DNA of 64,000 nt from an uncultured Pseudohongiella sp. Its GTDB lineage: Bacteria; Pseudomonadota; Gammaproteobacteria; Pseudomonadales; Pseudohongiellaceae. The position numbers and the translations under genes were made by a program. Below the pieces are notes generated by a model, which saw only the letters and a list, made by a program, of their open reading frames with translations, did not search any database and had not been told where the DNA came from. The DNA is taken from positions 3,573,704 to 3,637,703 of the forward strand of contig OZ253535.1 in the NCBI GenBank assembly GCA_965262465.1. The letters are read 5' to 3'. Numbering within the stretch: the first letter of the stretch is position 1; each line of letters starts with the position of its first letter. Shown here piece by piece: positions 40,952-56,438 of this stretch.

Positions 40952-42148
40952 ATGCATCGATTTAAAGTGTTAATAGTGAGCGTATTAGGCTTGGTCCTGG
41001 TGGCATGCCAGTCTAGCCAAAGCAGCACTAGTAGCAGCATGCCGATGCCTCCATCTGCATCTTCCAGCAGCAGTTCCAGCAGTCCAAGTATGCCATCGAG
41101 CAGTAGCTCAAGCAGTTCCAGCCAGAGCAGCTCGCAATCCAGTTCTTCAAGCCAGTCTCAGTCCAGCCAATCCAGCAGTAGCTCGAGCTCCAGCTCGTCT
41201 TCACAAGGCAGCCAGTCGGCAAGTACGGGAGCATCAATTCCCACTGCAAATCTGCCAACTTCCAGCCAACAAGGACAGAGCAGCAGTCAGGCATCAAGCA
41301 GTCAATCGGGCCAGCAGCCCGGCGGACAAGATAGCCGCAGCAGCTCAATTCCTGGAGATCAGCAGCAAGGTGGGGGACAGTCGTCATCCACCACAAGTGG
41401 CCAGGAACCGGGCCAGGCAGCAGGAACCGAGTCTCGATCACCTGGCGAACAGGGAAATGGAGGCCAAAGTGGGAGAGATGGCTCCACTGGAGACCTAAAT
41501 AGTGGTCAAAGTGGGAGTCAGGGCCAATCTGGCGGCGTTTTAGGGCGGCCAAGTGGGAATTACAGCCTGGAAAACTTGCCTGGCGGCAGCCAAAGTGGGA
41601 CAGATAGCCAGCAAACTGCTGGTGGCGGTGGCCAGCAACAGCAGAGTCCAGGAGGATCTGATGGTCGGCAACAAGTCCCTGGTGGGTCAAGTGGTCAATC
41701 CACTGCCAGCACGGGAGGCGCATCAACTGCCGCAGAACGTGCAGCTATTTTGGATGAACGGTTACGCCGCGGATATGAAACATTTGATGGCTTTATATTG
41801 AGTGAACGTGAGCGTGCTCAAAATGAAAGCAATGCCGCGGGCAGTGTTGCCATCGGCGGTGATGCTGGCGGCGGTGGCGGCGGTCAAAACCAACCACAAA
41901 CTATGGAAGAAGCAAGCTCGTCTACTCCGACTTCTGGAGTGGTTGCGGCCACTGCGAATTCAATGCCTTCTTCCAGTCAGGAAGAAGTTGAAACCTTCCC
42001 TCCACCTGATGACATTCCAAGTGGACGGGATGACGATGTAGTTGCGCGGCAGATTCGAGAAGCCGCGATGACAGAACCAGACCCAGAATTGCGCGAAGCA
42101 CTTTGGGAACAATACAGAGTTTACACAGGTATTGGTGACGAACAATGA
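40952..42148 (+). CDS. extremely Ser/Gln/Gly-rich lipoprotein with an ordinary-composition C-terminal domain
   Basis: Signal and lipobox MHRFKVLIVSVLGLVLVAC. About 250 aa are low complexity (poly-Ser, then SGQ/GGQ-rich). The C-terminal part AAERAAILDERLRRGYETFDGFILSERERAQ ... DDVVARQIREAAMTEPDPELREALWEQYRVYTGI has normal composition. ATG 40952 was chosen over the GTG at 40937. Confidence 0.6.
   Translation: MHRFKVLIVSVLGLVLVACQSSQSSTSSSMPMPPSASSSSSSSSPSMPSSSSSSSSSQSSSQSSSSSQSQSSQSSSSSSSSSSSQGSQSASTGASIPTANLPTSSQQGQSSSQASSSQSGQQPGGQDSRSSSIPGDQQQGGGQSSSTTSGQEPGQAAGTESRSPGEQGNGGQSGRDGSTGDLNSGQSGSQGQSGGVLGRPSGNYSLENLPGGSQSGTDSQQTAGGGGQQQQSPGGSDGRQQVPGGSSGQSTASTGGASTAAERAAILDERLRRGYETFDGFILSERERAQNESNAAGSVAIGGDAGGGGGGQNQPQTMEEASSSTPTSGVVAATANSMPSSSQEEVETFPPPDDIPSGRDDDVVARQIREAAMTEPDPELREALWEQYRVYTGIGDEQ
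41015..41215 (+). repeat. low-complexity Ser-codon tract (AGC/AGT/TCN) inside the lipoprotein gene
   Basis: Encodes SSTSSSMPMPPSASSSSSSSSPSMPSSSSSSSSSQSSSQSSSSSQSQSSQSSSSSSSSSSSQGSQS. Lower-grade Q/G/S-rich sequence continues to about 41720. Confidence 0.85.
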
Positions 42149-43329
42149 GAATGCCTTTGAAGCAGTTTTTTGGAATTTTACTGTTGGCGTTGTTTACCAC
42201 GGCATGCGCCACTCACACCGTTAAGACCACTTCGTACACACCCGTTGTGCAAAACAGTCAGGACGTTCCTGAAGATTTGCTTTTAGACGTGGGCGTATCG
42301 ATTTTTGATCCAGGTCTCGATGAGTTGGATGACGATCAAGAAGAAGTGACTAATGGGCAGATCCGAGTAGCGGAAGCACGTTATGCGCCTTATTTGCTGT
42401 CGGAGACTTTGCAGCGTTCTGCCAATTGGGGAATCGTGCGTTTAATGCCGAATGCGAGTAGCCCGATGGATGTGCTCGTTACAGGTACGATCTTAGAGTC
42501 CAATGGCGAATCAATGGCGGTACGAGTCGAAGTGAAAGACTCGAGAGGACAGCTCTGGTTCACCAAGGAATATCAAGAAGTCATTAGCCAGTTTAGCTAC
42601 GACGCACAACAGCGGCAGAAAAGCGATCCGTTCCAAGTAATCTACAACAAGATCGCTAACGATTTGTTGGCGTATCGAGAATCAAATCTCGATAGCCAAG
42701 ACATTCGAGAAATTCGCACCGTATCTGAAATGTTGTTTGCACAACGTTTTTCAGAAGCAGCGTTTTCTGACTATCTGCAAGTTGACCGCGACGGCAACTA
42801 TCAACTGGCCGCACTGCCTGCAGAAAATGATCCTTTATTAAATCGAATTCAAGACATTCGTGAACGTGACTTCATGTTCATCGATACAGTGCAGGATTAC
42901 TACGCAACTTATGTTCGGCAGATGCGTTTGCCTTACGATTCTTGGCGCGAACAGAGTTATCACGAAACCATTACTCTTAGAGAGTTAGAAGCGTCAGCAC
43001 GACGTCGTTTTATCGCCGGTACGGCAGCTGTAATTGGCGGCCTGGCTGCTGCTACACAGGGTGGTACATACGGTGCACAAGCGAGTGGTGCAGTTGGTGT
43101 AGGAGCAGGCGCGTATCTCATCAAGAGTGGATTCGATCGACAAGCAGAAGCGCGAATGCATATGGAGGCTCTGGAAGAGCTTGGCCAATCATTAGAAAAC
43201 GCTGTTGCTCCGCAAGTGATTACTCTCGACGATAGAACAATCACACTGTCTGGTTCAGTTGAAGAACAGTACGACCAGTGGCGTGAAATTCTGGCAGACC
43301 TCTATGCCGAAGAATTAGGTCAGTTGTAA
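42145..43329 (+). CDS. lipoprotein of unknown function with a Gly-zipper hydrophobic segment
   Basis: Lipobox LALFTTAC. ATGA overlap with the upstream stop. Late hydrophobic Gly-rich segment FIAGTAAVIGGLAAATQGGTYGAQASGAVGVGAGAYLI. Confidence 0.6.
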   Translation: MRMPLKQFFGILLLALFTTACATHTVKTTSYTPVVQNSQDVPEDLLLDVGVSIFDPGLDELDDDQEEVTNGQIRVAEARYAPYLLSETLQRSANWGIVRLMPNASSPMDVLVTGTILESNGESMAVRVEVKDSRGQLWFTKEYQEVISQFSYDAQQRQKSDPFQVIYNKIANDLLAYRESNLDSQDIREIRTVSEMLFAQRFSEAAFSDYLQVDRDGNYQLAALPAENDPLLNRIQDIRERDFMFIDTVQDYYATYVRQMRLPYDSWREQSYHETITLRELEASARRRFIAGTAAVIGGLAAATQGGTYGAQASGAVGVGAGAYLIKSGFDRQAEARMHMEALEELGQSLENAVAPQVITLDDRTITLSGSVEEQYDQWREILADLYAEELGQL

Positions 43330-43387
43330 CGATTTAATTAAAGGCTGAGAAATCGGCAAGTGATGGACACAGCCGGTAGACCTGCAC

Positions 43388-44935
43388 ATGTCAGAGAACG
43401 AACTCAACAATACAGATCAATCTGCTCTGGGTAATGCTGACCAATTAAGTGAAGCAGAGCGCATTGCGCAACAAATAGCGCCTCCCAAAAGTCAGAAACC
43501 TTCTCCCATAATGTGGTTAGGCCTCGGCGGTCTGTTGATCGTCGCGTTGCTGGTAATTTTCGTTCTGCCTTCCTTAGTCACCGAGTATGAATTACCGCTT
43601 GAGCGCCGCACGGAAGTTGCTAACACCGTGGTTCCCGCTACAACGGCTGAGCCAGAAGTCACAATATCTCCTTTCGAAGAAGCGCAGCGAGCCCTGCAGC
43701 GCAAAGATGCACAAGATACCTTGGCTGAATTGTTGGACCTGCAGTCAGAACTCGATCTGCTCGAAGTTAGTCAGTGGGGACAAGAAGCGTACGATGCGGC
43801 TTTGCAAGAAGCTTCTATTGGTGATGAGTACTACCGTACCCAAGATTTTCTCTTAGCTACAGAGTCTTATGCGAGAGGCAGAGATGGGCTTACGGAATTA
43901 GTCGAGTCAACGCCCGAAGTACTTGCGAGAATTTTGATTGATGCACAAAACGCCTTGAGTGCCGCTGATTCCGATTTAGCACAAGACCGTTTCTCACTGG
44001 CTCTAGTACTTGACTCAAACAATGAAACTGCACAAATCGGTTTGGAACGAGCCCAAGCGTTGGATGAAGTGACCCGCTTAATGGCAGAGGCGGACGATCT
44101 ATTTGAAGACGGTGAATTGGAAGCTGCGAGAGAGTTGTATGATCAGATTATTCAACTCGACGGCTACAACGAAGCAGCACCAGAAAAGATTGCAGCGGTT
44201 GATGCACAACTTAGAGAAAACGAATTTTCTCGCATCATGTCCGAAGGCTTCGCATTACTTGAAGCAGATGATCCTGAACAAGCTATCGCAACATTTCAAC
44301 GCGCAGCAAATCTGGGAATTAATCAAGACCAGGCACAAGCTGCTATTGTGCAAACCGAAACACAGGTTGCCAATTCACAAATCAATGCACTACGCGCGCA
44401 AATCGATTCTGCTGAAGCAAGTGAAATGTGGGCAGATGCGGTAACCGCCTATGACGGTGTGCTGGCGATTGATCCGAATCTCACGTTTGCATTGGAAGGT
44501 AGAGTCAATGCAAACCAACGCGCCAATTTAGATGCCTTCTTGGTTAACGCCATTACCAACCCAGAGCGGTTCGGAGAAGACGATGTGTTTGAAGAAACGC
44601 GGGGTTACTACTTCGTTGCGCGTGATCTTCCTGACCCAGGTCCTCGATTGGAATCGCAGCTCGATGAGTTAGAACAACTTCTGATTGATTCTCAAATTCC
44701 AATTGAAGTGAGTTTAACTTCAGACAATCTCACTGATGTGACCTTGTTGCGAATAGGAAACATAGGTCCGTTTGAACAGCACACTTTATCTCTCAAGCCC
44801 GGACGCTATGTTGCAGTAGGAAAACGAGCAGGCTTTCGCGATGTAAGAGAAGAGTTTGTAGTGGGGTTTGGACAAACTCCTGATGCAGTAGTTGTTCGAT
44901 GCACTGAGCGCGTGGTCGGCGCAAGCGGACGATAA
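43388..44935 (+). CDS. bitopic membrane protein with a periplasmic TPR-like repeat region
   Basis: One TM segment (IMWLGLGGLLIVALLVIFVLPSLV), then repeated A/L/E/Q-rich helical pairs (e.g. FEDGELEAARELYDQIIQLDGYNEAA, EADDPEQAIATFQRAANLGINQDQA, EMWADAVTAYDGVLAIDPNLTFA). Confidence 0.6.
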   Translation: MSENELNNTDQSALGNADQLSEAERIAQQIAPPKSQKPSPIMWLGLGGLLIVALLVIFVLPSLVTEYELPLERRTEVANTVVPATTAEPEVTISPFEEAQRALQRKDAQDTLAELLDLQSELDLLEVSQWGQEAYDAALQEASIGDEYYRTQDFLLATESYARGRDGLTELVESTPEVLARILIDAQNALSAADSDLAQDRFSLALVLDSNNETAQIGLERAQALDEVTRLMAEADDLFEDGELEAARELYDQIIQLDGYNEAAPEKIAAVDAQLRENEFSRIMSEGFALLEADDPEQAIATFQRAANLGINQDQAQAAIVQTETQVANSQINALRAQIDSAEASEMWADAVTAYDGVLAIDPNLTFALEGRVNANQRANLDAFLVNAITNPERFGEDDVFEETRGYYFVARDLPDPGPRLESQLDELEQLLIDSQIPIEVSLTSDNLTDVTLLRIGNIGPFEQHTLSLKPGRYVAVGKRAGFRDVREEFVVGFGQTPDAVVVRCTERVVGASGR

Positions 44936-47012
44936 AGCTGTGACAAACTCAGATCACAACTCAACAGATAATGGGGCACTTGACCCCATAGTTCCGATTG
45001 ACTTCACGCCACATGAAGTCAAAGCGAAAAAATTCACTTATCAGTTCCATTGGTTTCACGCAGTGGTTGCAGTCTTTGTACTGCTGTCATCTGTGTCGGG
45101 CTGGTTCGTACTGACGGCGAAATCAGTTTTTGTAGAAGTAGATCCAATCACCGCGTCGATAGAAATTGAGGGTGGGCTGAATTTTCGCTTGGGTCAGCGT
45201 TACCTGATACGTGCAGGCTCATACGAGATCACGCTGCGCAACGAGGGCTATCACGACAGCGTCACTAGCCTCATAGTGGGTTCCGATGCTGCGCAGACTC
45301 ATCCGTTTACCATGAGAAAATTGCCTGGATTGGTAAGCATCAACACCATCGCCATGACCGGCGCTCGTGTGCAAATCGATGGCGTGGATATTGGTGAGAC
45401 ACCACTGGTAGATGTGCCAGTCGAACCCGGAGAGCGCCAGCTCACAATCAGTAATGATCGTTATCTGGACTATGGCACCACCATAGAAATAGAAGGTCGT
45501 TCAGTTCCCCAAACTTTCGAAGCAACCTTAGAACCCGCTTGGGCAACCTTGTCGTTTACCACTTCCCCGGCTGGCGCTGACATCATCGTCGACGGTGAGA
45601 CTGTCGGCCAGACTCCGTTTAATGCAGAAATTCTGCAAGGTGAGCGGGATGTCACATTGAAGCTTGCTGGCCATAAAGCATGGCAGGAAGAGTTTGATGT
45701 CATTGCCGGCGAAGATTTTGTGGTTCCCTCAATCAACCTGGAACCGGCCGATGGCTTGGTGTTTATTCAGAGCAATCCTTCAGCTGCCAATGTCACGATA
45801 GGTGGAGAATTTCAGGGCCTAACACCACTTGAAGTAGCGTTAGCTCCGGACCAGAACCATGAACTGACCTTCTTCAAAAACGGCTATGAAATGACTCGCA
45901 GCACAGTGCGGACTGCCCCCAATGAAGAAAAGTCTGTTGTTGTTTCTCTGAGTCCGGTTACTGCCAGTGTGCAGATCGTGAGTGAGCCGGCAGATGCTGA
46001 GCTCTACATAAATGGAGAATTGTTGGGCTTGGCGAATCAGACTGTGGAGTTGATGGCGGTCAGTCAACAAATCGAGATTCGTAAAGAAGGTTACGTCCCT
46101 TATAACACCGAGTTCACATCCCGCCCCGGTTTGGATCAGGTCATACGAGTTACGTTAAAGTCGCTAGAGCAAGCGCGCCTGGAACAGATACAACCGGTGA
46201 TCACTACCGTTGCAGGGCAGTCATTGAAATTGTTCTATCCAGGTGACTTCACCATGGGCGCATCGCGCAGAGAAGCTGGCCGACGTCCGAATGAAGCGCT
46301 ACGAGATATTAAGCTGGAACGACCGTTCTATATTGGTTACCAAGAGGTCACAAACGCACAATATCGATTGTTCGATGGAGAGCATAACTCCGGCACCATA
46401 CAAGGGCTTACTCTTAACAACGAATCACAGCCCGTCGTTCGCGTAACCTGGGATCAGGCTGCTCTGTACTGTAATTGGTTAAGTGAACAGGAAGGGCTAC
46501 CGGTCTTTTATCAAGTCGAAGGCGAGGAAGTAGTTGGTTTTAATCCTGAGTCAACTGGCTATCGCCTACCTACCGAAGCGGAATGGGCTTGGATCGCTCG
46601 AACCGATGGCACTGGCAACACCTTAAAGTACCCTTGGGGTACTCAACTTCCACCACCGGAAAACGCCGGCAATTTTGGTGATGTAACAGCACAAGCCTAT
46701 CTAGGCGAAGTGATGTTTGACTACAACGATGGTTATTTCGCCACTGCACCCGTTGGATCTTTTGCTGCTAACCACTATGACATTTTTGACATGGCAGGTA
46801 ATGCATCAGAGTGGGTACACGACTATTACGGTTCTGCAGGAAGTCTCGGTGTAGAGATAGATCCGTTAGGACCGGAACTTGGACAATTTCATACCATCCG
46901 TGGCTCGAGTTGGGCGCATGGTGCGATAACAGAAATGCGATTGTCATTTCGTGATTTTGGTGTAGAGCCAAGGGATGACGTTGGCTTTCGCGTTGCAAGA
47001 TATCTCGAATAA
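44892..47012 (+). CDS. membrane-anchored protein with 5 PEGA-like repeats and a C-terminal FGE-sulfatase (SUMF1/GldK-like) fold domain
   Basis: TM segment FHAVVAVFVLLSSVSGWFVLTA. Five repeats of the type TLSFTTSPAGADIIVDGETVGQTPF...L..G...V.L...G. C-terminal FTMGASRRE...RPFYIGYQEVTNAQYRLF...RLPTEAEWAW...GNASEWVHD...IRGSSWAH. The start is either TTG 44892 (overlapping upstream) or GTG 44940. Confidence 0.8.
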   Translation: MFDALSAWSAQADDKAVTNSDHNSTDNGALDPIVPIDFTPHEVKAKKFTYQFHWFHAVVAVFVLLSSVSGWFVLTAKSVFVEVDPITASIEIEGGLNFRLGQRYLIRAGSYEITLRNEGYHDSVTSLIVGSDAAQTHPFTMRKLPGLVSINTIAMTGARVQIDGVDIGETPLVDVPVEPGERQLTISNDRYLDYGTTIEIEGRSVPQTFEATLEPAWATLSFTTSPAGADIIVDGETVGQTPFNAEILQGERDVTLKLAGHKAWQEEFDVIAGEDFVVPSINLEPADGLVFIQSNPSAANVTIGGEFQGLTPLEVALAPDQNHELTFFKNGYEMTRSTVRTAPNEEKSVVVSLSPVTASVQIVSEPADAELYINGELLGLANQTVELMAVSQQIEIRKEGYVPYNTEFTSRPGLDQVIRVTLKSLEQARLEQIQPVITTVAGQSLKLFYPGDFTMGASRREAGRRPNEALRDIKLERPFYIGYQEVTNAQYRLFDGEHNSGTIQGLTLNNESQPVVRVTWDQAALYCNWLSEQEGLPVFYQVEGEEVVGFNPESTGYRLPTEAEWAWIARTDGTGNTLKYPWGTQLPPPENAGNFGDVTAQAYLGEVMFDYNDGYFATAPVGSFAANHYDIFDMAGNASEWVHDYYGSAGSLGVEIDPLGPELGQFHTIRGSSWAHGAITEMRLSFRDFGVEPRDDVGFRVARYLE

Positions 47013-47056
47013 CGATCTTGCATTTGAATTGAATACGGACGAATAGGAAATCAGTA

Positions 47057-47881
47057 ATGAAGCAAGGCTCGCTTTACGAAACATTTTTCCAACTAGTAGC
47101 ACTGATCTTTTGTGTGATCATTGTGCATGCAACCTATGTCACCGTGATCCGGCCTAATGCCGATCTCATTCAAGAGCAGCAAACACTTCTGCAGCAGCAA
47201 GATGAAAACTTTGTTCCGGAACGGTCTGTATTCATCATTCTTCGAGATTTCGAACAAGAAACATGCATCATCTTAATGTTCTGGGCTCTGTTCATTATAG
47301 GAATGAAAGCACAGCAAACACTGAAGCAACGTTCTCTATTAGACCGAACACTTATTCAAGTTAATCAGGGCATGAGTATATTGCCCGAAGACGCAAGAAA
47401 TTATGCACGTCCCGTACAAGCACTGCCGGAAAGCGAACAGGATTTCCTGTTAGCCAGGGCGATCACTGCAGGCCTGCATCGCTTTCAAAGTACGCGCAAT
47501 ATTCAGGATGTATCCAACACGGTTAAAGATACATGTGAGACTGAAGCTGACCGAATGGAAACCGAGTTATCGCTGGTGCGATACATCGCTTGGGCCATTC
47601 CTTCTATTGGGTTCTTGGGCACCGTGCGCGGTATCGGTACAGCATTGGGGCAGGCATACCAGGCAGTAAGCGGCGATATCGTGGGGGTGACAGTCAGCCT
47701 GGGCGTGGCATTTAACTCAACATTTGTTGCTCTGGTAGTGAGCATTTTTCTGATGTTCCTGTTGCACCAGCTGCAGCAGTTACAGGATAGATTAGTACTG
47801 GACTGTCAAAACTATTGTGATGAACGGCTTATTCGCCATCTCCAAGTTCCTGATTCGGAATCTGAATTAGCAACCACGTGA
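47057..47881 (+). CDS. MotA/TolQ/ExbB-family proton channel protein
   Basis: 274 aa with two N-terminal TM segments, a cytoplasmic loop, then the family signature YIAWAIPSIGFLGTVRGIGTALGQA and a final TM segment VSLGVAFNSTFVALVVSIFLMFLL. Confidence 0.8.
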   Translation: MKQGSLYETFFQLVALIFCVIIVHATYVTVIRPNADLIQEQQTLLQQQDENFVPERSVFIILRDFEQETCIILMFWALFIIGMKAQQTLKQRSLLDRTLIQVNQGMSILPEDARNYARPVQALPESEQDFLLARAITAGLHRFQSTRNIQDVSNTVKDTCETEADRMETELSLVRYIAWAIPSIGFLGTVRGIGTALGQAYQAVSGDIVGVTVSLGVAFNSTFVALVVSIFLMFLLHQLQQLQDRLVLDCQNYCDERLIRHLQVPDSESELATT

Positions 47882-47905
47882 GACGGCTAAGGCGAGAGAA
47901 ACCGC

Positions 47906-49249
47906 ATGAGCTTTAAAGTCATCGAGCTAAACGACAAAGCCATTAGTGTTGGCGATGAAACGGGAGTGATTATTCGCAGTCCCGGCTTTGCTTTGGCAGA
48001 TGGAAGCGAAGTGCTACTCGGTGAACAAGCGGAAAAACAGGCGCGGTTAAAGCCAACCAATAGTTACAACAAATATTGGCAAGAACTTAATCTCGATCCC
48101 ATCGAGCATGGCAATAACTTTCGCCACCATGCCGATATCGCGTTTGCCCATCTGCAACACCTGGCCGAAGAGGCTGATGTGGGTGCTGATGTAGTAATTG
48201 CAGTACCAGGCAGTTTTTCTCGACAACAACTTTCAATACTTCTCGGACTTTCCCAGCACAGCCCATTCAATATCAGCGGCATTGTCGATTCAGCATTGGC
48301 TGCGGCGCTTGCGTCAGCCAGAACAAGCAATGTTTTGTATGCCGATCTGCAGTTACACCAGGTAGTCATAACGAAACTCACTGCAAAAGAGAATCAACTA
48401 AGTACCAGCACGACAGTGCAGATTCCTGGAGTAGGTAGTCAGAATTTCACTGACCTGGTCATGCAGTTGGCTACGGGTATGTTCATTCAGCAATGTCGCT
48501 TTAATCCGCAACATGACGCTGAATCCGAACAGCAACTTTATAACGAACTTCCGCAGTGGCTTGCGCAAGCGCAACAAGACGGCAATCTAATTCTAGAGTT
48601 AAACGCCGGCGATACGATTCATACGGCAAAAATGCCAATGGATAGTTTGGTAAATAGCCTCAATGGTCATTACAAGACTATCAACAAACAACTTGCTGCG
48701 ATGGCGACAGATCATGATACTCAGTTAGTCGTCAGCAGTTCACTCGCTGAGTTACCTGGTTTTAATGCCAGCCTTCCTGCGTCACTGGACTTGATCATTA
48801 TTGATGACAATGCCGTGAATGAAACTTGTCTTGAGTATCGCGAGTTAATCACTGCGACGGATCAGGGCATAAGTTTGGTAAGTGCATTACCACTTCCAGA
48901 GGGTGGAACTACACCAAACCACAGTGCTGACCAAAAGACTGTAGCGCCTACTCATGTTTTACATGGTAGCCAGGCATTGCCGGTGAACAAGATCAGTATT
49001 GAGAACCACCAAACTATCAACGGCCATAGTGAAGCTGTAAATGTTCTCGCGTTATCGATTGCAGACCTGCCAGAAAATCTTGGCAACATCGCTAAGGAAA
49101 ATGATGGCGTCTATTTTGATAGTGGAGAACTTTCTTATCTACTTAATGGCGTTGCAACAAGCGGTGCGCGCAAGCTCGCCGTAGGCGACCGAATTCAGTT
49201 TAGTGGCAGTAACGATGTGTTGACCTTGATAAGGGTGCGCGATGTCTAG
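47906..49249 (+). CDS. divergent Hsp70/actin-fold protein with degenerate nucleotide-binding motifs
   Basis: VLLGEQAEKQARLKPTNSY, VVIAVPGSFSRQQLSILLGLSQHSPFNISGIVDSALAAALA and GSQNFTDLVMQLATGMFIQQ align with DnaK [61 protein letters not shown] and GGEDFDSRLINYLVEEF. Phosphate-1 (IDLGTTNS becomes IELNDKAIS) and phosphate-2 (DLGGGTFD becomes DLQLHQVV) are not conserved. Confidence 0.6.
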   Translation: MSFKVIELNDKAISVGDETGVIIRSPGFALADGSEVLLGEQAEKQARLKPTNSYNKYWQELNLDPIEHGNNFRHHADIAFAHLQHLAEEADVGADVVIAVPGSFSRQQLSILLGLSQHSPFNISGIVDSALAAALASARTSNVLYADLQLHQVVITKLTAKENQLSTSTTVQIPGVGSQNFTDLVMQLATGMFIQQCRFNPQHDAESEQQLYNELPQWLAQAQQDGNLILELNAGDTIHTAKMPMDSLVNSLNGHYKTINKQLAAMATDHDTQLVVSSSLAELPGFNASLPASLDLIIIDDNAVNETCLEYRELITATDQGISLVSALPLPEGGTTPNHSADQKTVAPTHVLHGSQALPVNKISIENHQTINGHSEAVNVLALSIADLPENLGNIAKENDGVYFDSGELSYLLNGVATSGARKLAVGDRIQFSGSNDVLTLIRVRDV

Positions 49250-50468
49250 CGAACACAGAGCAGCCAGACGTAAATTTAATCCAATAAGCCTGTCTTTTTT
49301 GGACGTTATGTTCTGTGGTTTTGGCGCGGTGATTCTGATTTTCCTTATCCTCGATCACAACAGCACAGTCTCTGATGTGGAATACAACCCGGACTTGCTT
49401 GCTGAGATCAATCTACTGGAAGAGGAAGTGGAGGAAGGGCAACTCGGATTAGTACGTATAAGAAATACCCTATCGGACGTCGACTTCGATGTGGTTGAAG
49501 CGCAAGGCCTGGCACGCCAGATTCAGGAACAGATCGATACTTTTCTGCAGGAGTTGGCGGCGCTCGAAAATTCCAGCGTGGCAACGGTGGAAGATGTGGA
49601 ACAACTGCGAGCAGACGTGCAACAGCTCGAAGAAGAACTGCTTCGCTTGCAGGCCAGTGCTCTGGAACAGGAAGGATCTAGCGTGCGGCAGTTTATTGGG
49701 GATGGCCAGCGACAGTATTTATCCGGGCTCTATCTCGGTGGTCAGCGCATTCTTATCGTAGTGGATGCATCCGCCAGTATGCTGGATGACACCATCGTCA
49801 ACATCATTCGTACCAGCCTCAGGGCTGATGTATATAAGAAAGAAGCGCCAAAATGGCAACGTGTTGTCAAAATTGTCGATTGGATTACCACCCAGCTGCC
49901 TATTATCAGTCGTTATCAGATTTATGCCTTCAATCAAGAGGTGCGGGCCGCCATTCCAGGTACGGAGCAATCTTGGCTAGAAGTAGCGGATCGGGACCAG
50001 CTAAATGAAGCAGTTGAACAGGTGATGGATTTGGCGCCGGAAGGTGGCACGAACTATGAGCGGCTGTTTCGTGAGGTCGCCAACATGTCGCCCCCGCCGG
50101 ACAATATCTTTCTAATTACCGATGGGCTGCCAACGATCGATGATCGCGGGGCCAGGGATCCGCTTATCTCACCAAGAGACAGGTTGGAATTATATGAAGA
50201 CGCAGTCGGGGAGTTATTACAGGGTATTCCGGTCAATATTATATTGATGCCATTGGAAGGTGATCCCAGTGCCGCAGCGGCATTTTGGGAGTTGGCCCAA
50301 TATTCCAGAGGCTCGCTGATTTCCCCGTCCAAAGATTGGCCCGGCGGTGCGTCGGCGGTGGAAGAAGACGAACTGGATGAACCGCGGGATGATAATTCTG
50401 TCGCCCGGGTAGAAAGTACAGAAGAGATTTCGGAAGATTTAGGAGTGTCCTTTCCAACGAATATTTAA
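49242..50468 (+). CDS. bitopic protein: ExbD/TolR-like Asp-containing TM helix, periplasmic coiled coil, vWA domain (paralog 1)
   Basis: N-terminus RAARRKFNPISLSFLDVMFCGFGAVILIFLIL (compare ExbD TPFIDVMLVLLIIF). Heptad-rich residues about 45-145. vWA MIDAS elements VVDASASM, GGTNY, ITDGLP. 8-nt overlap with the upstream gene. Confidence 0.7.
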   Translation: MSSEHRAARRKFNPISLSFLDVMFCGFGAVILIFLILDHNSTVSDVEYNPDLLAEINLLEEEVEEGQLGLVRIRNTLSDVDFDVVEAQGLARQIQEQIDTFLQELAALENSSVATVEDVEQLRADVQQLEEELLRLQASALEQEGSSVRQFIGDGQRQYLSGLYLGGQRILIVVDASASMLDDTIVNIIRTSLRADVYKKEAPKWQRVVKIVDWITTQLPIISRYQIYAFNQEVRAAIPGTEQSWLEVADRDQLNEAVEQVMDLAPEGGTNYERLFREVANMSPPPDNIFLITDGLPTIDDRGARDPLISPRDRLELYEDAVGELLQGIPVNIILMPLEGDPSAAAAFWELAQYSRGSLISPSKDWPGGASAVEEDELDEPRDDNSVARVESTEEISEDLGVSFPTNI

Positions 50469-50484
50469 GTTGGGTAACTAAGAC

Positions 50485-51495
50485 ATGAGCAAGAAAAACC
50501 GCAGAGAAACAGATTCGTTTACCGTGTCTTTCCTGGACGTGGCGTCCTGTGGTTTCGGTGCCATGATCATTCTCTTGATGATCACTAAAAACTCCGACCC
50601 TGTGACCTTGGAGATCTCCGACCTGACCCCAGAGGCCACGGTTACTGAGCTGCAGGAGCAACTATTTGAGATACGTGGTGAAACCACGATTTTGAATCGG
50701 GAACTCAATGCCAAACATGAGCAACTGTCATCCCTGACAGAGCGAATTGCTCGCCTTCGCCGCGATTTGAATGACGTGCAAGGGCGCTTCAATGCCTCGA
50801 ATCAACTCTCAGATGAAATCACTGACGAAGTGGGCCGACTGGCCATCGCACGGCAAACCCTGACGGAGGAAATGCAGCGCTTGTTAGCCAATGTCGCCGC
50901 GCCGGAAGACAACGCCATTGGCGGGGTCCCGGTGGACAGCGAGTACATCATCTTCGTGATTGATACTTCGGGCAGTATGGCCAATACCCCCGGAAACTGG
51001 GACAAAATGCTCGAGGTCATCGACAATACCTTGAACGTCTATCCTGAAGTGAAGGGCATCCAGGTCATGAATGACATGGGTGACTACATGTTTAACACCT
51101 ACCGCAACGAGTGGATTCCGGATACCCCGGGAAGACGTAATCAGATCATTTCCACCTTGCGCTCTTGGCAGCCATACAGTAATAGTAGCCCTGTAGAAGG
51201 TGTGACACGCGCGATTAATACCTTTTATTCCCCGGATAAGAAAATTAGTATCTATGTACTGGGGGATGATTTTCAGCCAGGCGGGTCTATACAGGACGTG
51301 CTAAACACTATTGACCGCATCAATGTGGAAGATGCCAATGGAGACCGCTTGGTTCGCATTCATGGTATCGGATTCCCAACTATATTTATGGGGCCTCCGC
51401 GCTTTCGACAAAGCGCCTATCGCTACACCAATTTAATGCGTGAAATGACGCAACGAAATGGTGGTACATTTGTAGGATTAAACGCGACTCAATGA
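50485..51495 (+). CDS. bitopic protein: ExbD/TolR-like Asp-containing TM helix, periplasmic coiled coil, vWA domain (paralog 2)
   Basis: N-terminus KKNRRETDSFTVSFLDVASCGFGAMIILLMI. Coiled-coil-like residues about 45-135. vWA FVIDTSGSM ... VLGDD. Same architecture as the preceding gene. Confidence 0.7.
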   Translation: MSKKNRRETDSFTVSFLDVASCGFGAMIILLMITKNSDPVTLEISDLTPEATVTELQEQLFEIRGETTILNRELNAKHEQLSSLTERIARLRRDLNDVQGRFNASNQLSDEITDEVGRLAIARQTLTEEMQRLLANVAAPEDNAIGGVPVDSEYIIFVIDTSGSMANTPGNWDKMLEVIDNTLNVYPEVKGIQVMNDMGDYMFNTYRNEWIPDTPGRRNQIISTLRSWQPYSNSSPVEGVTRAINTFYSPDKKISIYVLGDDFQPGGSIQDVLNTIDRINVEDANGDRLVRIHGIGFPTIFMGPPRFRQSAYRYTNLMREMTQRNGGTFVGLNATQ

Positions 51496-51550
51496 GCCAA
51501 GCTGGTGGTCTCAGCGTATAGATGACTGATCAGCCTTGCGAGTGAAGAAC

Positions 51551-52189
51551 ATGAATAGGAATAGACGCAACACAACAATTCAACGAACCCACACTCTGCA
51601 ACATGTGGTTTTGCTCCTGTGTGTTGGATTGCTGGCGAGCTGTGGTGTAAACAATGTCACCATCCAGGGTGAGTTCCCTACGCCTAACATATCCAAGTTG
51701 CCTTTGAGTGTCGCTGTCTACTATGACGACGCCCTGAAAGACTTCACTTACATGGAGTATTCCGAAACAGGCACCGAAGAGTTCAACATTGCGAGTGGTC
51801 AATCTCATGTGCAGTTGTTTAACGCTGTACTGCCTGCCATGTTCAACCAGGTTGTGGAAGTAACTCAGGTTGAAGAAGCTGGCACTCGACAAGTAGATGC
51901 GGTGTTTATGCCGCTGATTGAAGAGTTTCAACTCGCACTGCCAGCAAAAACCAAACTCGATGTGTATGAAGTTTGGATCAAATACAACATGCGCTTGGTA
52001 ACTCCGGAAGGAGATTACATCGCTGATTGGGTGTTAACGTCATACGGCAAAACACCAACTGACACATTTCGTTCTGCTGAAGCAGGTATTAATGAAGCCG
52101 CTGTGGTTGCCTTAAGAGATTTGGCCTCCAGCTTTTCTTTGACCTTTTCACAAGTTCCTGAGGTACGTGACTGGCTTGCGAGTTTGTAG
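51551..52189 (+). CDS. lipoprotein of unknown function
   Basis: Signal and lipobox LLLCVGLLASCG. ATG 51551 was chosen inside the TTG-initiated track ORF. No family recognised. Confidence 0.55.
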   Translation: MNRNRRNTTIQRTHTLQHVVLLLCVGLLASCGVNNVTIQGEFPTPNISKLPLSVAVYYDDALKDFTYMEYSETGTEEFNIASGQSHVQLFNAVLPAMFNQVVEVTQVEEAGTRQVDAVFMPLIEEFQLALPAKTKLDVYEVWIKYNMRLVTPEGDYIADWVLTSYGKTPTDTFRSAEAGINEAAVVALRDLASSFSLTFSQVPEVRDWLASL

Positions 52190-52214
52190 CAAGTTATTCA
52201 GTAGGGGGTTGGTT

Positions 52215-52886
52215 ATGATGAGTGAGCGATACACAACAACTGTTAAGTTATTTTTCGTTCTGGGACTAGGACTTCTAGCCGCTTGTACCAGCACCACTGT
52301 TGATGAATTTAGACAAGGCGAGACTGGCATCGAAAGTGATGAGACAGTGGTGATTCTTGGAAGACGCCAAGCCAGCGACTATGAAACGGATTCAGGCTTT
52401 GTAGAGTGTGTTGGCGATCGCATGGCCCGCGGTGAAAACGCCATCAACATTGTTCCCGAACAAGAATTTATCGATGCTATGTTCCCGTGGTTTGAACCAC
52501 GTACTGCTCCCTTGCGCACGCGCGATCTTGAACAGCTAATGGCTGAAGATGTAGTGGCAAGAAAAATGGGAGAGTTTGGAATTCGTTACATCGTGTGGGT
52601 GGATGGATTTACTGAAACCACTGATCGCCAAGGATCTATTTCTTGCACAATCGGACCAGGTGGCGGCGGATGCTTCGGCTTCGGCACTTGGGAAGATGAT
52701 GCAAATTTTGATGCACGCGTCTGGGACGTCGGGTCTTTAACCAATGTGGGTACAATTAATACCGATGCTTCAGGCCAGTCCTATCTGCCTGCCCTTGTGG
52801 TGCCTATACCACTCATTGCCAGAGTTGAAGCTAATGCCTGTAATCGCTTGGCCGCTCAGCTCAAACAGTTTGTAAACGGTAGTTAA
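52215..52886 (+). CDS. lipoprotein of unknown function
   Basis: MMSERYTTTVKLFFVLGLGLLAACTS has a lipobox. ATG 52215 is preceded by a GGGGG RBS. No family recognised. Confidence 0.55.
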   Translation: MMSERYTTTVKLFFVLGLGLLAACTSTTVDEFRQGETGIESDETVVILGRRQASDYETDSGFVECVGDRMARGENAINIVPEQEFIDAMFPWFEPRTAPLRTRDLEQLMAEDVVARKMGEFGIRYIVWVDGFTETTDRQGSISCTIGPGGGGCFGFGTWEDDANFDARVWDVGSLTNVGTINTDASGQSYLPALVVPIPLIARVEANACNRLAAQLKQFVNGS

Positions 52887-52920
52887 GGAATTAACTACCA
52901 ACCGATCGACAGGTGGCTTT

Positions 52921-54438
52921 ATGCATGTTCTAAGTCTGCGTAACTTGGGCGGTGCAATCATCGCGCAGTTTTCTCTTAAACAACTCTTCTTGATAGTCGT
53001 GGCATTTAGCTCTGCGTCTTTCTTAACGTCCTGTGCAGTTAATCCTGCCACCGGCAGTCCTAACTTGGTGCTAATGGGCGAAAACCGAGAGAAAGAAATC
53101 GGTTTGGAAGAACATGAAAAGGTGCTGGCAAGCCAACCCATTTTGCAAGACGAAGCACTGTTGGAATATGTCACCGAAGTGGGCAACCGAGTCGCTGCCG
53201 CTAGTCACCGTCCAGATTTGGAATACACGTTCACAATCATTGATAGTCCAGCCATCAATGCTATGGCACTACCAGGTGGATACGTGTATGTGAATCGCGG
53301 GCTGCTTACCTTCATGAATACCGAAGCAGAACTTGCTGCGGTAATAGCTCATGAGATTGGCCATATCACTGCACGACACGCTGTACAACAACAGGCCCGA
53401 GGAGCGCTGGCGAATGCTGCTGTTACTGTAGGTGGTTTTGTAACTGCAGTTGCAACAGGCAGTGGTTATGCCGGATCGCAAATAAGTCAGGTTGCTTCAA
53501 TTTGGGCACAAACCGGTTTGAGTGGTTTTGGCCGTGAAATGGAACTGGAGGCTGATAGTCTTGGTGCAGAGTATCTTCTCAAAGCGGGCTACGATCCTTC
53601 GGCGATGATTGAAGTGGTTACTGTGTTAAAGAACCAGGAAGACTTTAATCGCCTGACCACTGGTAGCGGTGGTGGTTACCATGGTTTGTTTGCAACTCAC
53701 CCTCGCAGTGATACCCGTCTGCAACAAGCCATCGCATCAGTAGGTAGTCTGGAAGAATCAGAAGCAACACTAACCGACGACAGTAAGTTCCGCGAACACA
53801 TAAATGGATTAGTGGTTGGTGAGAGTGCGGCCGCTCAACAACAGGATGAACGTAATCGTTACTACGAAACCACCCTCGGATACACCATGGTGTTTCCAGA
53901 TGAATGGAATGTTGAAAATTCCTTTACCACCGTAACTGGTGAAGAAGAAGGCATTGGCAGCTTACAAGTAGAAGCGAGACGACTGCGCGACAATATCGAG
54001 CCTCGGGTTTTTATTCGAGATAACCTCGGCATTACCAATCTGCAAAAATCAGAAGCACTATCCCAATTCCGATTACTTGGTCACACCGGAACCCATGTTT
54101 CACCGGAGACGGGAAACACCGAAAGAGTTGCAGTGATCTACCTGGGCCCGCGTGCATTTATATTCCGCGGAGATATTGCTGATGCCAGCGCTGTTGATGA
54201 AATCGATGAAGTGATGCTGGATTCCATTCGTAGTTTCCGCGCAATTCAACGGGGAGAAACCCTACTGGGTAGCGAATTGAAGCTGCGTTATGTGCAAGCC
54301 TCGGAATTCTTTGATTTCGCTGTGGTGGCTCAATCCAGCAAGATTGCCAATTATCCCGAGGAGACCTTGCGTTTGCTGAATGGATATTACCCCTCCGGCA
54401 ACCCGGAAGCGGGTGACTGGGTGAAGCTGGTCGAATAG
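52921..54438 (+). CDS. M48 family zinc metalloprotease, lipoprotein
   Basis: Lipobox FLTSCA. NAMALPGGYVYVNRGLL...ELAAVIAHEIGHITARH (HExxH) plus downstream ELEADSLG are typical of M48 (YcaL/LoiP/BepA type). It also carries a roughly 230-aa C-terminal extension of unknown type. Confidence 0.85.
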   Translation: MHVLSLRNLGGAIIAQFSLKQLFLIVVAFSSASFLTSCAVNPATGSPNLVLMGENREKEIGLEEHEKVLASQPILQDEALLEYVTEVGNRVAAASHRPDLEYTFTIIDSPAINAMALPGGYVYVNRGLLTFMNTEAELAAVIAHEIGHITARHAVQQQARGALANAAVTVGGFVTAVATGSGYAGSQISQVASIWAQTGLSGFGREMELEADSLGAEYLLKAGYDPSAMIEVVTVLKNQEDFNRLTTGSGGGYHGLFATHPRSDTRLQQAIASVGSLEESEATLTDDSKFREHINGLVVGESAAAQQQDERNRYYETTLGYTMVFPDEWNVENSFTTVTGEEEGIGSLQVEARRLRDNIEPRVFIRDNLGITNLQKSEALSQFRLLGHTGTHVSPETGNTERVAVIYLGPRAFIFRGDIADASAVDEIDEVMLDSIRSFRAIQRGETLLGSELKLRYVQASEFFDFAVVAQSSKIANYPEETLRLLNGYYPSGNPEAGDWVKLVE

Positions 54439-54462: not shown

Positions 54463-54632
54463 AATTCCTCACTAAACCACTGATTTATAAAGCGAACTGC
54501 GCCTCATCTGGGGTGCAGGATGGTTTGTTTTTGCTCGGCACGAGGTTAAACTTGGGCAGTTCCGAGAATCTGTGACCCTAAAAGGGCTGCAACAGAGGAG
54601 CGAATCCACTTGGCCACCTCCAGGATCTAGTC

Positions 54633-56438
54633 ATGGCTGCTGTTGAAGAGCAAAACAAGTCAGGGAATAAGACGATGCCGCGCCCCAATGCGCCATTGGA
54701 TCTCAATGATTTTCTCGATGGATTACTTGAAGAAGGCCGGATCAAACAATCGGATATTGATCTCGCACTCAAGAGCCGTCATGCACCAGAACATCGCGGC
54801 AAGCATCCGGTGCATTTTGTGTCTGACCTTAATTTGGAAGATCAACTAAACGCCGGTCGCAATCTCGATATCGAAACCCTGACTCAATCTTTAAGTAAGC
54901 AATGTGGTCAGGACTACTACCGCATTGATCCATTAAAGATCGATGTGGCACAAGTCACCAAAGTCATGGACTACAAGTTTTCGCAGCGGCATCAGATTCT
55001 TGCCGTTGAAGATCGAGCGAACGAAGTAGTTATCGCCAGCGCAGAACCTTTTCTCGATTCCTGGGAATCGGTGCTTGAACATACCTCCGGCAAAAAAATT
55101 ACTCGCGTTGTTTCTAATCCGCTAGATATAAAACGCCTCGCCTCAGAATTTTATAGTGTTTCGCGTTCAATCCAGGGTGCGACACAAGGTCAAACTCAAC
55201 TCAAAGGCATTGGCAACCTTGAGCAAATGCTTGAGTTGGGAAAACTCAAAGACCCAGAAGCTAATGACCAGCACATCGTAAATGTCGTTGATTGGTTGTT
55301 GCAGTATGCATTCGAACAACGTGCCAGTGATATTCACATTGAACCGCGAAGAGAACAGGGCAACATTCGTTTTCGAATCGACGGTGTGCTTTACACAGTG
55401 TACTCATTACCCATGCAGGCACTCAGTGCGGTAACGAGTCGACTAAAAATTCTTGGCCGCATGAATGTGGCTGAAAAACGTAAACCTCAAGATGGTCGCA
55501 TAAAGACCAAGAGTCCAAATGGCAATGAAGTAGAACTTCGCTTATCAACCTTGCCCACTGCATTCGGTGAAAAGTTGGTTATGCGTATCTTCGATCCAGA
55601 AGTTCTGCTTAAACCGTTCGAAGAGTTAGGACTGATCAACGATGATCTGCAGCGCTGGAACAATATCACCGCAAACAATCACGGCATTGTCATCATTACT
55701 GGACCGACAGGTAGTGGTAAAACAACTACTCTTTACTCCACCTTAAAAACTCTTGCTACTGAAGAAGTAAATGTTTGCACCATTGAAGATCCGATCGAGA
55801 TGGTGGAAGACAGCTTTAATCAGATGCAAGTGCAAGAAAACATCGACCTAGGATTTGCGGATGGTGTGAAAGCCTTGTTACGACAAGACCCAGACATCAT
55901 CATGATTGGTGAGGTTAGAGACTTGCCTACGGCTGAAATGGCGATTCAGGCAGCTCTAACCGGCCACCTTGTTTTCACTACTTTACATACCAATGACGCA
56001 CCCTCAGCCATCACTCGTATGCTTGAGTTAGGTGTGCCACCTTACCTCTTAAAAGCTACTGTTATAGGCATAATGGCCCAGCGCTTGGTTCGAGTTCTTT
56101 GCCCGCATTGCAAACAACCAACAGAAGTCGAGAAAGATGCCTGGGAAACTTTAACGTCGCCGTGGAAAGTTAAGTTGCCGAAAAAAGCAGCCAAGGCTGA
56201 TGGATGTTTGGAGTGTCGTGAAACAGGTTTCCTCGGTCGAGAAGGCATATACGAAGTAATGCCGTTTACCGAATCATTATTCCGCTATGCCGATGACAAA
56301 TCGGATCTACCGGAATTACGTAAACAAGCTTATAAAGAAGGCATGTTAAGCCTACGTTTGAGCGGTGCTCAAAAAGTGGCGGCAGGACTCACGACTGTTA
56401 ACGAAGTTCTGCGGGTCACACCCGATATGCAGAATTAA
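54633..56438 (+). CDS. GspE/PilB-family secretion ATPase (T2SS/T4P assembly ATPase type)
   Basis: 601 aa with a T2SSE_N-like N-domain, Walker A GPTGSGKTTT, Asp and His boxes (IMIGEVRD, GHLVFTTLHTNDA) and a tetracysteine motif CPHC...CLEC. Confidence 0.9.
   Translation: MAAVEEQNKSGNKTMPRPNAPLDLNDFLDGLLEEGRIKQSDIDLALKSRHAPEHRGKHPVHFVSDLNLEDQLNAGRNLDIETLTQSLSKQCGQDYYRIDPLKIDVAQVTKVMDYKFSQRHQILAVEDRANEVVIASAEPFLDSWESVLEHTSGKKITRVVSNPLDIKRLASEFYSVSRSIQGATQGQTQLKGIGNLEQMLELGKLKDPEANDQHIVNVVDWLLQYAFEQRASDIHIEPRREQGNIRFRIDGVLYTVYSLPMQALSAVTSRLKILGRMNVAEKRKPQDGRIKTKSPNGNEVELRLSTLPTAFGEKLVMRIFDPEVLLKPFEELGLINDDLQRWNNITANNHGIVIITGPTGSGKTTTLYSTLKTLATEEVNVCTIEDPIEMVEDSFNQMQVQENIDLGFADGVKALLRQDPDIIMIGEVRDLPTAEMAIQAALTGHLVFTTLHTNDAPSAITRMLELGVPPYLLKATVIGIMAQRLVRVLCPHCKQPTEVEKDAWETLTSPWKVKLPKKAAKADGCLECRETGFLGREGIYEVMPFTESLFRYADDKSDLPELRKQAYKEGMLSLRLSGAQKVAAGLTTVNEVLRVTPDMQN

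Follow-up and report, generated by a model that had tools for sequence, protein, structure and literature searches.

The channel gene and the two vWA genes

The window analyzed here is the whole 64-kb stretch of DNA from an uncultured Pseudohongiella sp. (contig OZ253535.1). It contains a gene for a channel protein of the MotA/ExbB/TolQ family and, downstream of it, two adjacent genes for proteins that carry a domain of the von Willebrand factor A (vWA) type behind a single transmembrane (TM) helix, which we call vWA1 and vWA2. A first-pass annotation of this DNA had read the three products as an ion-driven motor of the 5:2 type, in which the channel would be the A subunit and the vWA proteins would take the place of the B subunits ExbD, TolR and MotB. 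The three open reading frames (ORFs) lie where that annotation had placed them, and the two aspartate codons on which it relied read GAC exactly at 49302-49304 and 50536-50538. The features of the three genes, given with the residues in amino acids (aa), are:

47057-47881, forward strand: A subunit, channel of the MotA/ExbB/TolQ family, 274 aa, four hydrophobic segments (PF01618; hydropathy)
47621-47623, forward strand: codon of Thr189 in the GFLGT motif, counterpart of TolQ T145 (HMMER alignment to TolQ GLFGTVWGI)
47714-47722, forward strand: Asn220-Ser221-Thr222 in the last TM helix, Thr222 being the counterpart of TolQ T178 (alignment to TolQ ALIATAIGL)
49242-50468, forward strand: vWA1, B subunit candidate, 408 aa, with basic tail, Asp-bearing TM helix, long helix, linker, vWA domain and acidic tail
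49302-49304, forward strand: Asp21 codon (GAC) in the TM helix of vWA1
49284-49379: helix of vWA1, aa 15-46 (AlphaFold 2 model)
49389-49670: helix of vWA1, aa 50-143 (same model)
49746-50342: vWA domain of vWA1, aa 169-367, followed by a tail of aa 368-408 (same model)
49764-49778, forward strand: metal ion-dependent adhesion site (MIDAS) motif D-A-S-A-S of vWA1
50485-51495, forward strand: vWA2, B' subunit candidate, 336 aa, a paralogue of vWA1 with the same plan and a divergent vWA domain
50536-50538, forward strand: Asp18 codon (GAC) in the TM helix of vWA2
50962-50976, forward strand: MIDAS motif D-T-S-G-S of vWA2

The product of 47057-47881 proved to be the MotA/TolQ/ExbB channel that had been annotated, because it scored 58.5 bits against Pfam PF01618 (MotA_ExbB, cut-off 22.9) over residues 131-250. 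Pfam and NCBIfam scans covered 20 proteins, encoded by the genes from 31296 to 56438. In NCBIfam the top match of the channel was TolQ (8e-8), with MotA reaching only E=0.04, and the nearest sequence in the PDB was also a TolQ (8odt, E=1e-3). Hydropathy peaked at about residues 15-31, 69-85, 171-197 and 223-239, with a cytoplasmic loop of about 90 residues and a tail of 37 residues; the segment IPSIGFLGTVRGIG occupies residues 181-194 (bases 47597-47638). Thr189, Asn220, Ser221 and Thr222 were each invariant in 79 of 79 channel orthologues.

Both vWA proteins open with a basic tail, followed by a single hydrophobic helix of the form SFLDVxxCGFGA. The rest of the annotated plan, about 100 residues of helix and then a vWA domain, was also seen in both, with the domain of vWA2 recognized through its paralogy to vWA1 and its MIDAS motif. 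vWA1 passed the Pfam VWA_2 model (30.3 bits, cut-off 27). The vWA domain of vWA2 stayed under the Pfam cut-off (20.2 bits, with weak matches to VWA_2 and VWA), and the profile of its family gave weak matches to integrin I domains (E about 0.06). The two proteins matched each other in BLASTP with E=3e-10 and 22% identity, most strongly over the helix.

In the AlphaFold 2 model of vWA1 (predicted local distance difference test score, pLDDT, 82.5), an uninterrupted helix of 94 residues (aa 50-143) was followed by a poorly defined linker, a vWA fold with a pLDDT of about 97 and a disordered acidic tail. A Foldseek search with this vWA domain returned ITIH1, BatB (3ibs, rank 3), the Bacteroides aerotolerance membrane protein 4jdu (rank 5), CLCA1 and integrin I domains. 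The DASAS, GGT and TDG motifs of the MIDAS were present and conserved in vWA1; within its family (n=72), S177 and D294 were invariant, and D175 and S179 were kept in at least 90%. The DTSGS motif of vWA2 was found in 83 of 84 orthologues, and DTSGS and GD were invariant in the family alignment.

vWA1 of this genome and of its closest relatives ends in an extra tail of 41 residues, strongly acidic and disordered (50343-50465), which is absent in most members of the vWA1 family (about 360-367 aa). Names given to members of this family in public records include "polyhydroxyalkanoate synthesis regulator phasin" and "cell division protein FtsB". Such names are evidently spurious and triggered by the coiled coil.

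Conservation was read from 120 full-length representatives of the vWA family, which was clustered at 50% identity, and from the orthologues in a locus survey consisting of the best 80 of at least 594 matching loci and the distant loci L084-L087. The TM aspartate, whose conservation the motor reading presupposes, was kept: it stood at the same helix position in 118 of the 120 representatives, in all 84 vWA1 orthologues and in 83 of the 84 vWA2 orthologues. The Cys, Gly, Phe/Leu, Gly and Ala that follow it were nearly as constant among the representatives, and the family consensus of the helix was SFLDxMxCGFGA, with no His. The aspartate lies four residues into the helix, and the preceding tail averages 3.4 Lys/Arg versus 0.6 Asp/Glu. 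By the positive-inside rule, this basic tail indicates a cytoplasmic N-terminus and a periplasmic vWA domain.

The distance from the aspartate to the MIDAS was 154 residues in 63 of 81 vWA1 proteins and 142 residues in 60 of 81 vWA2 proteins, and the two lengths shifted together in three distant loci. Stalks that are conserved in length and co-vary in this way would fit a paired coiled coil of about 14 nm, carrying two MIDAS heads in the periplasm.

The vWA1 family comprised 1,248 clusters of 50% identity at E<=1e-3, 282 of which reached E<=1e-30. Among the 185,579 species-level genomes scanned, at least 594 matched the vWA family, mostly those of marine heterotrophs. Carriers include Pseudohongiella, Halieaceae, Cellvibrionaceae, Microbulbifer, Congregibacter, Pseudoalteromonas denitrificans and Colwellia, and the cluster members were named as Halioglobus, Pseudomonadales, Betaproteobacteria, Opitutae and Puniceicoccaceae. 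Four of the surveyed loci (L030, L034, L062 and L082) come from metagenome-assembled genomes labelled "Enterobacteriaceae" or "Klebsiella pneumoniae" and carry the marine-type operon described below at 48-57% identity; these labels are probably wrong.

The vWA1 and vWA2 genes were adjacent in 84 of 84 loci. The channel gene was present in 77 of 80, all three gaps being contig ends, and from Gammaproteobacteria to Verrucomicrobia a MotA-like gene adjoined the vWA cluster wherever there was sufficient upstream sequence, except in L084. Distant relatives with 30-35% identity kept the core genes.

Evidence for and against a 5:2-type motor

Homologues of ExbD and TolR were searched for with phmmer, using the E. 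coli proteins as queries, and with a hidden Markov model (HMM) built from 76 TolR/ExbD sequences, in every ORF that reached 60 aa, both in the window and in 83 loci. None was found in the 64-kb window or in the cluster of the 83 loci; the single hit, in L070, lay some 8 kb away from the cluster. Given the invariant aspartate and threonines, the co-occurring vWA genes and the lack of ExbD or TolR in the cluster, the locus is best read as a 5:2-type motor whose axle is heterodimeric and vWA-tipped, and we regard this motor architecture as likely. The same conserved residues, co-occurrence and missing ExbD/TolR give good support to the earlier proposal that a channel pentamer finds in the two TM/coiled-coil/vWA proteins its missing ExbD/TolR/MotB partner.

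In such a motor, the channel protein would form the pentameric, ion-conducting outer ring, and the N-terminal helices of vWA1 and vWA2, one copy of each, would lie side by side in the pore as a dimeric axle. Asp21 of vWA1 and Asp18 of vWA2 would then face the ring of Thr189 and Thr222, together with Asn220 and Ser221. The two aspartates would bind H+ or Na+ and give it off again in turn, causing the ring and the axle to rotate against each other, as in MotAB, ExbBD and TolQR. Outside the membrane, the helices of about 100 residues in the two proteins would together build a heterodimeric stalk, about 14 nm long, and present two MIDAS-bearing vWA heads in the periplasm. We infer the 5:1:1 stoichiometry, the insertion of the helices into the pore, the ion coupling and the rotation, as well as a periplasmic ligand and a biological output.

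Several results weigh against this motor. The glutamate of the known channels (ExbB Glu176, TolQ Glu173) is not kept, and the aligned residue of the channel protein is Val. A profile of 58 N-termini of the vWA proteins, compared with the PDB at E<=10, found no chain of ExbD, TolR or MotB; a Pfam scan of the same 58 N-termini at E<=10 did not find PF02472, and the 76-sequence TolR/ExbD HMM, run with --max against the operon proteins, gave no match to the TM helix. In hhalign, the comparison with the 76-sequence TolR/ExbD profile placed aspartate on aspartate with a score of 19.4 (P=0.0027, probability 11%). Among the controls, seven other TM anchors scored 8.3-16.1, reversed sequences 12.8 and the best of 60 column shuffles 17.7. 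The score of the helix is above all of these and to that extent speaks for the motor, but the margin is narrow and the signal weak. The invariant C-G-F-G-A after the aspartate has no counterpart in known B subunits, so the vWA helix could have a different role. Lastly, L084 has both vWA genes and a homologue of the 447-aa protein that is encoded between the channel and vWA genes in the window, with no MotA-like gene within 10 kb.

The relation of the helix to ExbD and TolR must therefore be worded with more care than in the first-pass annotation, in which the helix closely copied theirs. That was an overstatement, since the shared positions are limited to D-V-M and the hydrophobic pair before it, and homology of the TM helix to ExbD/TolR could not be demonstrated, with no match in HMMER or Pfam and an hhalign probability of 11%. 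Full-length vWA1 and vWA2 did not match PF02472 at E<=0.1, their periplasmic part being a helix plus a vWA domain. No OmpA-family match was found for them in Pfam or NCBIfam either, and their C-terminal domain is vWA. The sequences thus do not support placing the B candidates in the ExbD/TolR or MotB families. The vWA helix may work like that of ExbD and TolR; the profile-profile signal is no proof of shared descent.

A motor family of vWA and TolQ-like proteins has been predicted independently in silico, with an AlphaFold 3 model and no experiments (PMC12204202, Molecular Biology and Evolution, 2025), and this agreement speaks for the motor reading. The seed of that prediction was Idiomarina loihiensis. 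The vWA genes of the predicted family co-occur tightly with tolQ homologues, have no tolR or exbD neighbours and encode a helix with a conserved Asp and without the SHLS motif; the vWA proteins mostly form heterologous pairs, the family is spread over Proteobacteria and Verrucomicrobia, and in the AlphaFold 3 model two aspartates lie inside a threonine ring of the pentamer (PMC12204202). The view that no known family has a B subunit ending in vWA, taken in the first-pass annotation, has been out of date since that paper appeared in June 2025.

The present locus has the linked tolQ-like gene, no tolR or exbD and an Asp-bearing helix without SHLS, and it also shares the heterologous vWA pair, the threonine ring and the range over Proteobacteria and Verrucomicrobia. 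Because every stated feature of the predicted family except the AlphaFold 3 complex is matched, we assign the locus to this TPH-vWA/TolQ-like family on the strength of these features. A literature search found no other paper on this gene combination.

The twelve-gene operon

The first-pass annotation had treated the channel and vWA genes as a three-gene unit. The trio was confirmed, but the annotation had skipped a gene with an Hsp70-like fold between the channel and the vWA genes, and with it the operon of twelve genes to which all four belong. The twelve genes were found in one order and on one strand across the 80 loci, and most absences were contig ends. The order is secreted TPR protein, Ser-rich lipoprotein, 394-aa lipoprotein, TM-anchored TPR protein, protein with four PEGA domains and a formylglycine-generating enzyme (FGE) fold, MotA-like channel, 447-aa protein, vWA1, vWA2, 217-aa lipoprotein, Cys-rich 239-aa lipoprotein and M48 protease lipoprotein. 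Intergenic spacing in the window ranged from -44 to +58 bases, except for a gap of 246 bases after the first gene. Besides the channel and vWA genes, the features are:

39296-40690, forward strand: secreted TPR protein, 464 aa, first gene of the block (TPR_12, 30.8 bits; N-terminal signal-like segment)
40937-42148, forward strand: lipoprotein with a Ser/Gln/Gly-rich low-complexity region and an acidic C-terminal domain (lipobox-like LVAC)
42145-43329, forward strand: lipoprotein, 394 aa, with a C-terminal glycine-zipper segment (lipobox-like TTAC)
43388-44935, forward strand: inner-membrane-anchored TPR protein, 515 aa (TM segment aa 46-64; TPR_2 below the Pfam cut-off)
44892-47012 (gene-caller start 44940), forward strand: TM-anchored protein with four PEGA domains and an FGE-sulfatase (PorK/GldK-like) domain
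47906-49249, forward strand: cytoplasmic protein, 447 aa, with a region like the Hsp70/actin-fold nucleotide-binding domain (NBD) at aa 1 to about 326 and a beta-rich C-terminal domain at about aa 345-447
51536-52189, forward strand: lipoprotein, 217 aa (lipobox-like LASC; no Pfam or NCBIfam match)
52167-52886, forward strand: Cys-rich lipoprotein, 239 aa (lipobox-like LAAC)
52921-54438, forward strand: M48 metalloprotease lipoprotein, 505 aa, with a BepA-like catalytic domain (Peptidase_M48, 132.9 bits)
54497-54518, forward strand: terminator-like hairpin after the last gene of the block, with a 9-bp stem, 6 G-C pairs and a T-rich tail (consensus match only)

The 447-aa protein had no match in Pfam or NCBIfam and no TM segment, and a sequence search of the PDB was also empty. 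Its AlphaFold 2 model had a pLDDT of 85.9, and all of the top 50 Foldseek matches in the PDB were Hsp70 NBDs (best E=3e-16, TM-score normalized to the target 0.65-0.69). In hhalign, the comparison with the NBD of E. coli DnaK was not significant (E=0.33). As read from the alignment, the residues invariant in the family exclude the Gly-rich phosphate loop of Hsp70, and near the expected DLGGGT loop the sole invariant motif led by Asp was D147-L-Q-L-H-Q, a reading made without structural alignment. ATPase activity of this protein is doubtful because the Gly-rich phosphate loop is missing among the invariants. Judging from the model, the protein is of the Hsp70/actin type by fold only and is not a member of the Hsp70 family.

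A profile of its C-terminal domain ranked forkhead-associated (FHA) domains first, with weak scores (E=0.065-0.6, the lowest for KIF13B, 3fm8, E=0.065), and this domain is possibly FHA-like. The gene was syntenic in 77 of 80 loci, and its HMM matched proteins in L086 (4e-25) and L084 (9e-32). The Verrucomicrobia loci L086 (Opitutae) and L085 (Puniceicoccaceae K14) have a MotA-like gene, a gene for a protein of about 499 aa, vWA1 and vWA2. L087 has genes for a lipoprotein, a TPR protein and a PEGA/FGE protein followed by the MotA-like gene, vWA1 and vWA2, without the 447-aa gene. In L084 (8482-12080 and 12167-21068), the Hsp70-fold and vWA genes adjoin a gene on the opposite strand for a giant protein of 14,937 aa.

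The gene for the PEGA/FGE protein was syntenic in 70 loci and present in L085 and L087. Pfam matched PEGA in four stretches (162.6 bits) and the FGE-sulfatase domain (134.2 bits), and the top NCBIfam model was GldK/PorK, whose score of 101.8 bits stayed under the cut-off of 350. In the PDB, PorK/GldK gave 3e-14 versus 1e-13 for true FGEs. Compared with the motif of human FGE, its C-terminal RGSSWAHGAITEMRLSF has no Cys at the catalytic pair. The FGE-fold domain would therefore be non-catalytic and is probably a binding module.

The two TPR genes differ in how widely they were seen: the gene for the secreted protein kept the same upstream position in 53 of 80 loci, most absences being contig ends, and that for the TM-anchored protein was syntenic in 67 loci and also present in the Verrucomicrobia locus L085. 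The M48 protein matched BepA in the PDB (2e-21), has an intact HEIGH motif at aa 144 and was syntenic in 66 loci.

Among the lipoproteins, that of 40937-42148 had no Pfam or NCBIfam match, and its C-terminal part was conserved in 43 loci and in the distant L087. Its first 250 or so mature residues are almost all Ser, Gln and Gly, resembling a mucin. One might speculate that its acidic C-terminal domain is a ligand of the MIDAS. The gene for the 394-aa lipoprotein was syntenic in 62 loci and L087; Pfam scans of 23 orthologues gave weak matches to a C19orf12-like glycine zipper in six and nothing else. That for the 217-aa lipoprotein was syntenic in 77 loci. The 239-aa lipoprotein, syntenic in 72 loci, had no match in Pfam, NCBIfam or a PDB profile search; five Cys, including the lipobox Cys40, were invariant in 23 orthologues, and its family carries the motif GPGGxGCFGFGTW. 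In L085 (12252-12941) and L086 (4506-5393), the gene after vWA2 encodes a TM protein that replaces the gammaproteobacterial lipoproteins and whose C-terminal part looks thioredoxin/TlpA-like by eye.

The operon is chromosomal and vertically inherited. The flanks consist of housekeeping genes (ftsYEX, rsmD, coaD, mutM and lipopolysaccharide (LPS) core transferases), the G+C content is even, and among 72,556 plasmids and 50,697 phage records none matched the vWA family. A gene for an MshE-type ATPase of type II secretion systems and type IV pili with an MshEN domain (54633-56438) stands between the operon and the genes for the LPS-core glycosyltransferases, and no pilus or secretion genes were seen beside it. 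It was syntenic in 15 of 80 loci, all from the closest relatives; L085, too, has an MshEN/T2SSE gene close to the cluster.

More tentatively, and with somewhat less than an even chance in our estimate, the motor may be the core of a vertically inherited trans-envelope machine encoded by the twelve genes from 39296 to 54438. The machine would reach inward to the degenerate Hsp70/actin-fold and FHA-like protein and outward, through the vWA heads, to the BepA-like protease, four novel lipoproteins, two TPR proteins and a scaffold of the PEGA/PorK-like kind. Contacts with the operon products belong already to the likely 5:2-type motor: in the cytoplasm, the loop of about 90 residues and the tail of the ring would meet the Hsp70-fold protein, and in the periplasm the vWA heads would hold a partner, probably an envelope protein of the same operon such as the PEGA/FGE-fold protein, a TPR protein, a lipoprotein or the BepA-like protease. 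The main text, legends and supplementary text of PMC12204202 mention no genes for Hsp70-fold, PEGA/FGE-fold, lipoprotein or M48 protease products and no synteny of twelve genes.

Alternative readings and known systems

Instead of generating force, the same complex could be a gated signalling device or envelope sensor, as proposed for Zorya, in which ligand capture by the vWA domains would switch ion flow or rotation, and the ring would inform the Hsp70-fold/FHA-like protein. We consider this unlikely. In its favour, 77 of 80 loci, and Verrucomicrobia as well, keep a gene for a cytoplasmic protein between A and B; vWA/MIDAS domains are ligand-capture modules, and the C-terminal domain of the 447-aa protein weakly resembles FHA interaction modules. 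However, the Hsp70-fold gene is missing in L087 while the motor genes stay, and the operon encodes many envelope proteins and, according to the Pfam and NCBIfam scans, no recognizable effector, kinase or transcription factor. Absence from plasmids and phages, together with only weak matches in PADLOC, also leaves the family with no defence-island signature.

ZorAB itself resembles the 5:2-type motor proposed here as a member of the motor family that works outside motility and transport, and the channel protein had a weak ZorA match (E=0.0025), besides which PADLOC found no match to a Zor model. It differs in that the A subunit of the present locus has 274 aa without a long cytoplasmic tail, no peptidoglycan-binding domain of ZorB is present and ZorC, ZorD and ZorE are missing. 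The locus is also part of the core genome, syntenic across families and absent from plasmids and phages.

As a separate candidate, a defence system was rejected: PADLOC gave only the ZorA match and SMC-like coiled-coil noise on the vWA stalks, plasmid and phage records had no match, and the flanks are housekeeping genes with even G+C content.

It is distinctly improbable that the vWA proteins are periplasmic adaptors like BatA and BatB, placed outside a channel that uses an unlinked ExbD or TolR, with the aspartate kept, for example, for oligomerization. The HMM searches, which do not link the helix to ExbD/TolR, would agree with it, as would the vWA pair of L084 without a nearby channel gene and the ranks of BatB (3ibs, third) and 4jdu (fifth) among the best structure matches of the vWA domain. 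Such adaptors would leave unexplained why a charged residue in a single-pass helix is invariant across relatives of 30% identity and is accompanied by an invariant ring of Thr, Asn and Ser. In addition, MotA/ExbB-family genes normally adjoin their B gene, and the only adjacent B candidates here are the vWA genes. The absence of syntenic tolR/exbD has been called highly atypical for this motor family (PMC12204202).

The Bat systems do share with this operon the TM-anchored vWA domain, for which 3ibs and 4jdu are close structure matches, and the TPR proteins, but the MoxR AAA+ and DUF58 partners of Bat are missing, the place of the ATPase is taken by a channel protein, and the Asp-bearing helix and the long stalk are features of this locus and not of Bat. 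A MoxR-vWA/Bat operon and the ternary conflict systems of the Aravind type were both rejected as identities of the locus, with no MoxR, DUF58 or GTPase in the Pfam and NCBIfam scans; PMC7159879, considered for the latter systems, does not mention MotA or ExbB.

The weakest proposal, which we hold to be very improbable, makes the vWA proteins TolA/TonB-like force transducers on the outside of a complete A5B2 motor, as in the first vWA family of PMC12204202, which also has the order TM, linker and vWA and lies beside tolQ-like and TPR genes; yet what defines that family is a helix of the SHLS type with a conserved His, together with neighbouring tolR-like genes, whereas the helix here is SFLDxMxCGFGA without His, the cluster has no tolR-like gene, and the linker is a long helix and not proline-rich or disordered.

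The 5:2-type motor with a vWA-tipped axle can also be set beside ExbBD and TolQR, with which it shares the Pfam family and an A subunit closest to TolQ that keeps both pore threonines, as well as the basic tail ahead of a single TM helix whose aspartate lies close to the cytoplasmic end. In contrast to them, it has no ExbD/TolR periplasmic domain, and its B candidates are heterodimeric, with a long stalk and vWA heads. Its A subunit has four hydrophobic segments instead of three and lacks the TM3 glutamate, and no third component like TonB or TolA was found. The topology of four segments and the position of the aspartate near the cytoplasmic end of the B helix are as in MotAB and PomAB, but the OmpA-like peptidoglycan-binding domain and the plug helix are missing here. 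No flagellar genes lie near the locus.

In the Agl-Glt gliding machinery of Myxococcus, the A subunit of the AglR-AglQ-AglS motor is TolQ-like, and its B-type subunits are of two different kinds. The partners of this motor are TPR proteins, lipoproteins and the vWA protein CglB, and it is linked to cytoplasmic MreB, which has the actin fold. There, however, both AglQ and AglS are homologues of TolR, and vWA is found in a separate lipoprotein of the outer membrane, whereas here vWA is fused to the B-type helix. Pfam and NCBIfam scans of the 20 proteins covered found no Glt homologues.

The gene order of GldKLMN and PorKLMN is similar, with an FGE-fold protein first, then the A subunit of the motor, then a B subunit that has one TM helix and extends far into the periplasm. 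But GldL does not belong to PF01618 and GldM has no vWA domain, and the FGE-fold protein here is TM-anchored with PEGA domains instead of being a lipoprotein; its PorK/GldK match is barely above that of true FGEs and lies far under the NCBIfam cut-off, at 101.8 versus 350 bits. No match to GldL, GldM or GldN was found in the NCBIfam scan.

To the predicted family, the window adds a list of parts around the motor, among them a BepA-like protease, a scaffold resembling PorK and, in the cytoplasm, a partner with the Hsp70 fold. Should the prediction be right, an axle unrelated to ExbD, TolR and MotB beyond its first 25 residues can serve in 5:2 ion motors, and an ion motor could directly drive a metal-dependent domain of the adhesion type. 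If the twelve genes do encode one machine, it would be a new envelope apparatus powered by the proton-motive force, for example for the handling of outer-membrane proteins or surface polymers, and would be distinct from Ton, Tol-Pal, the type IX secretion system, Agl-Glt and Zorya.

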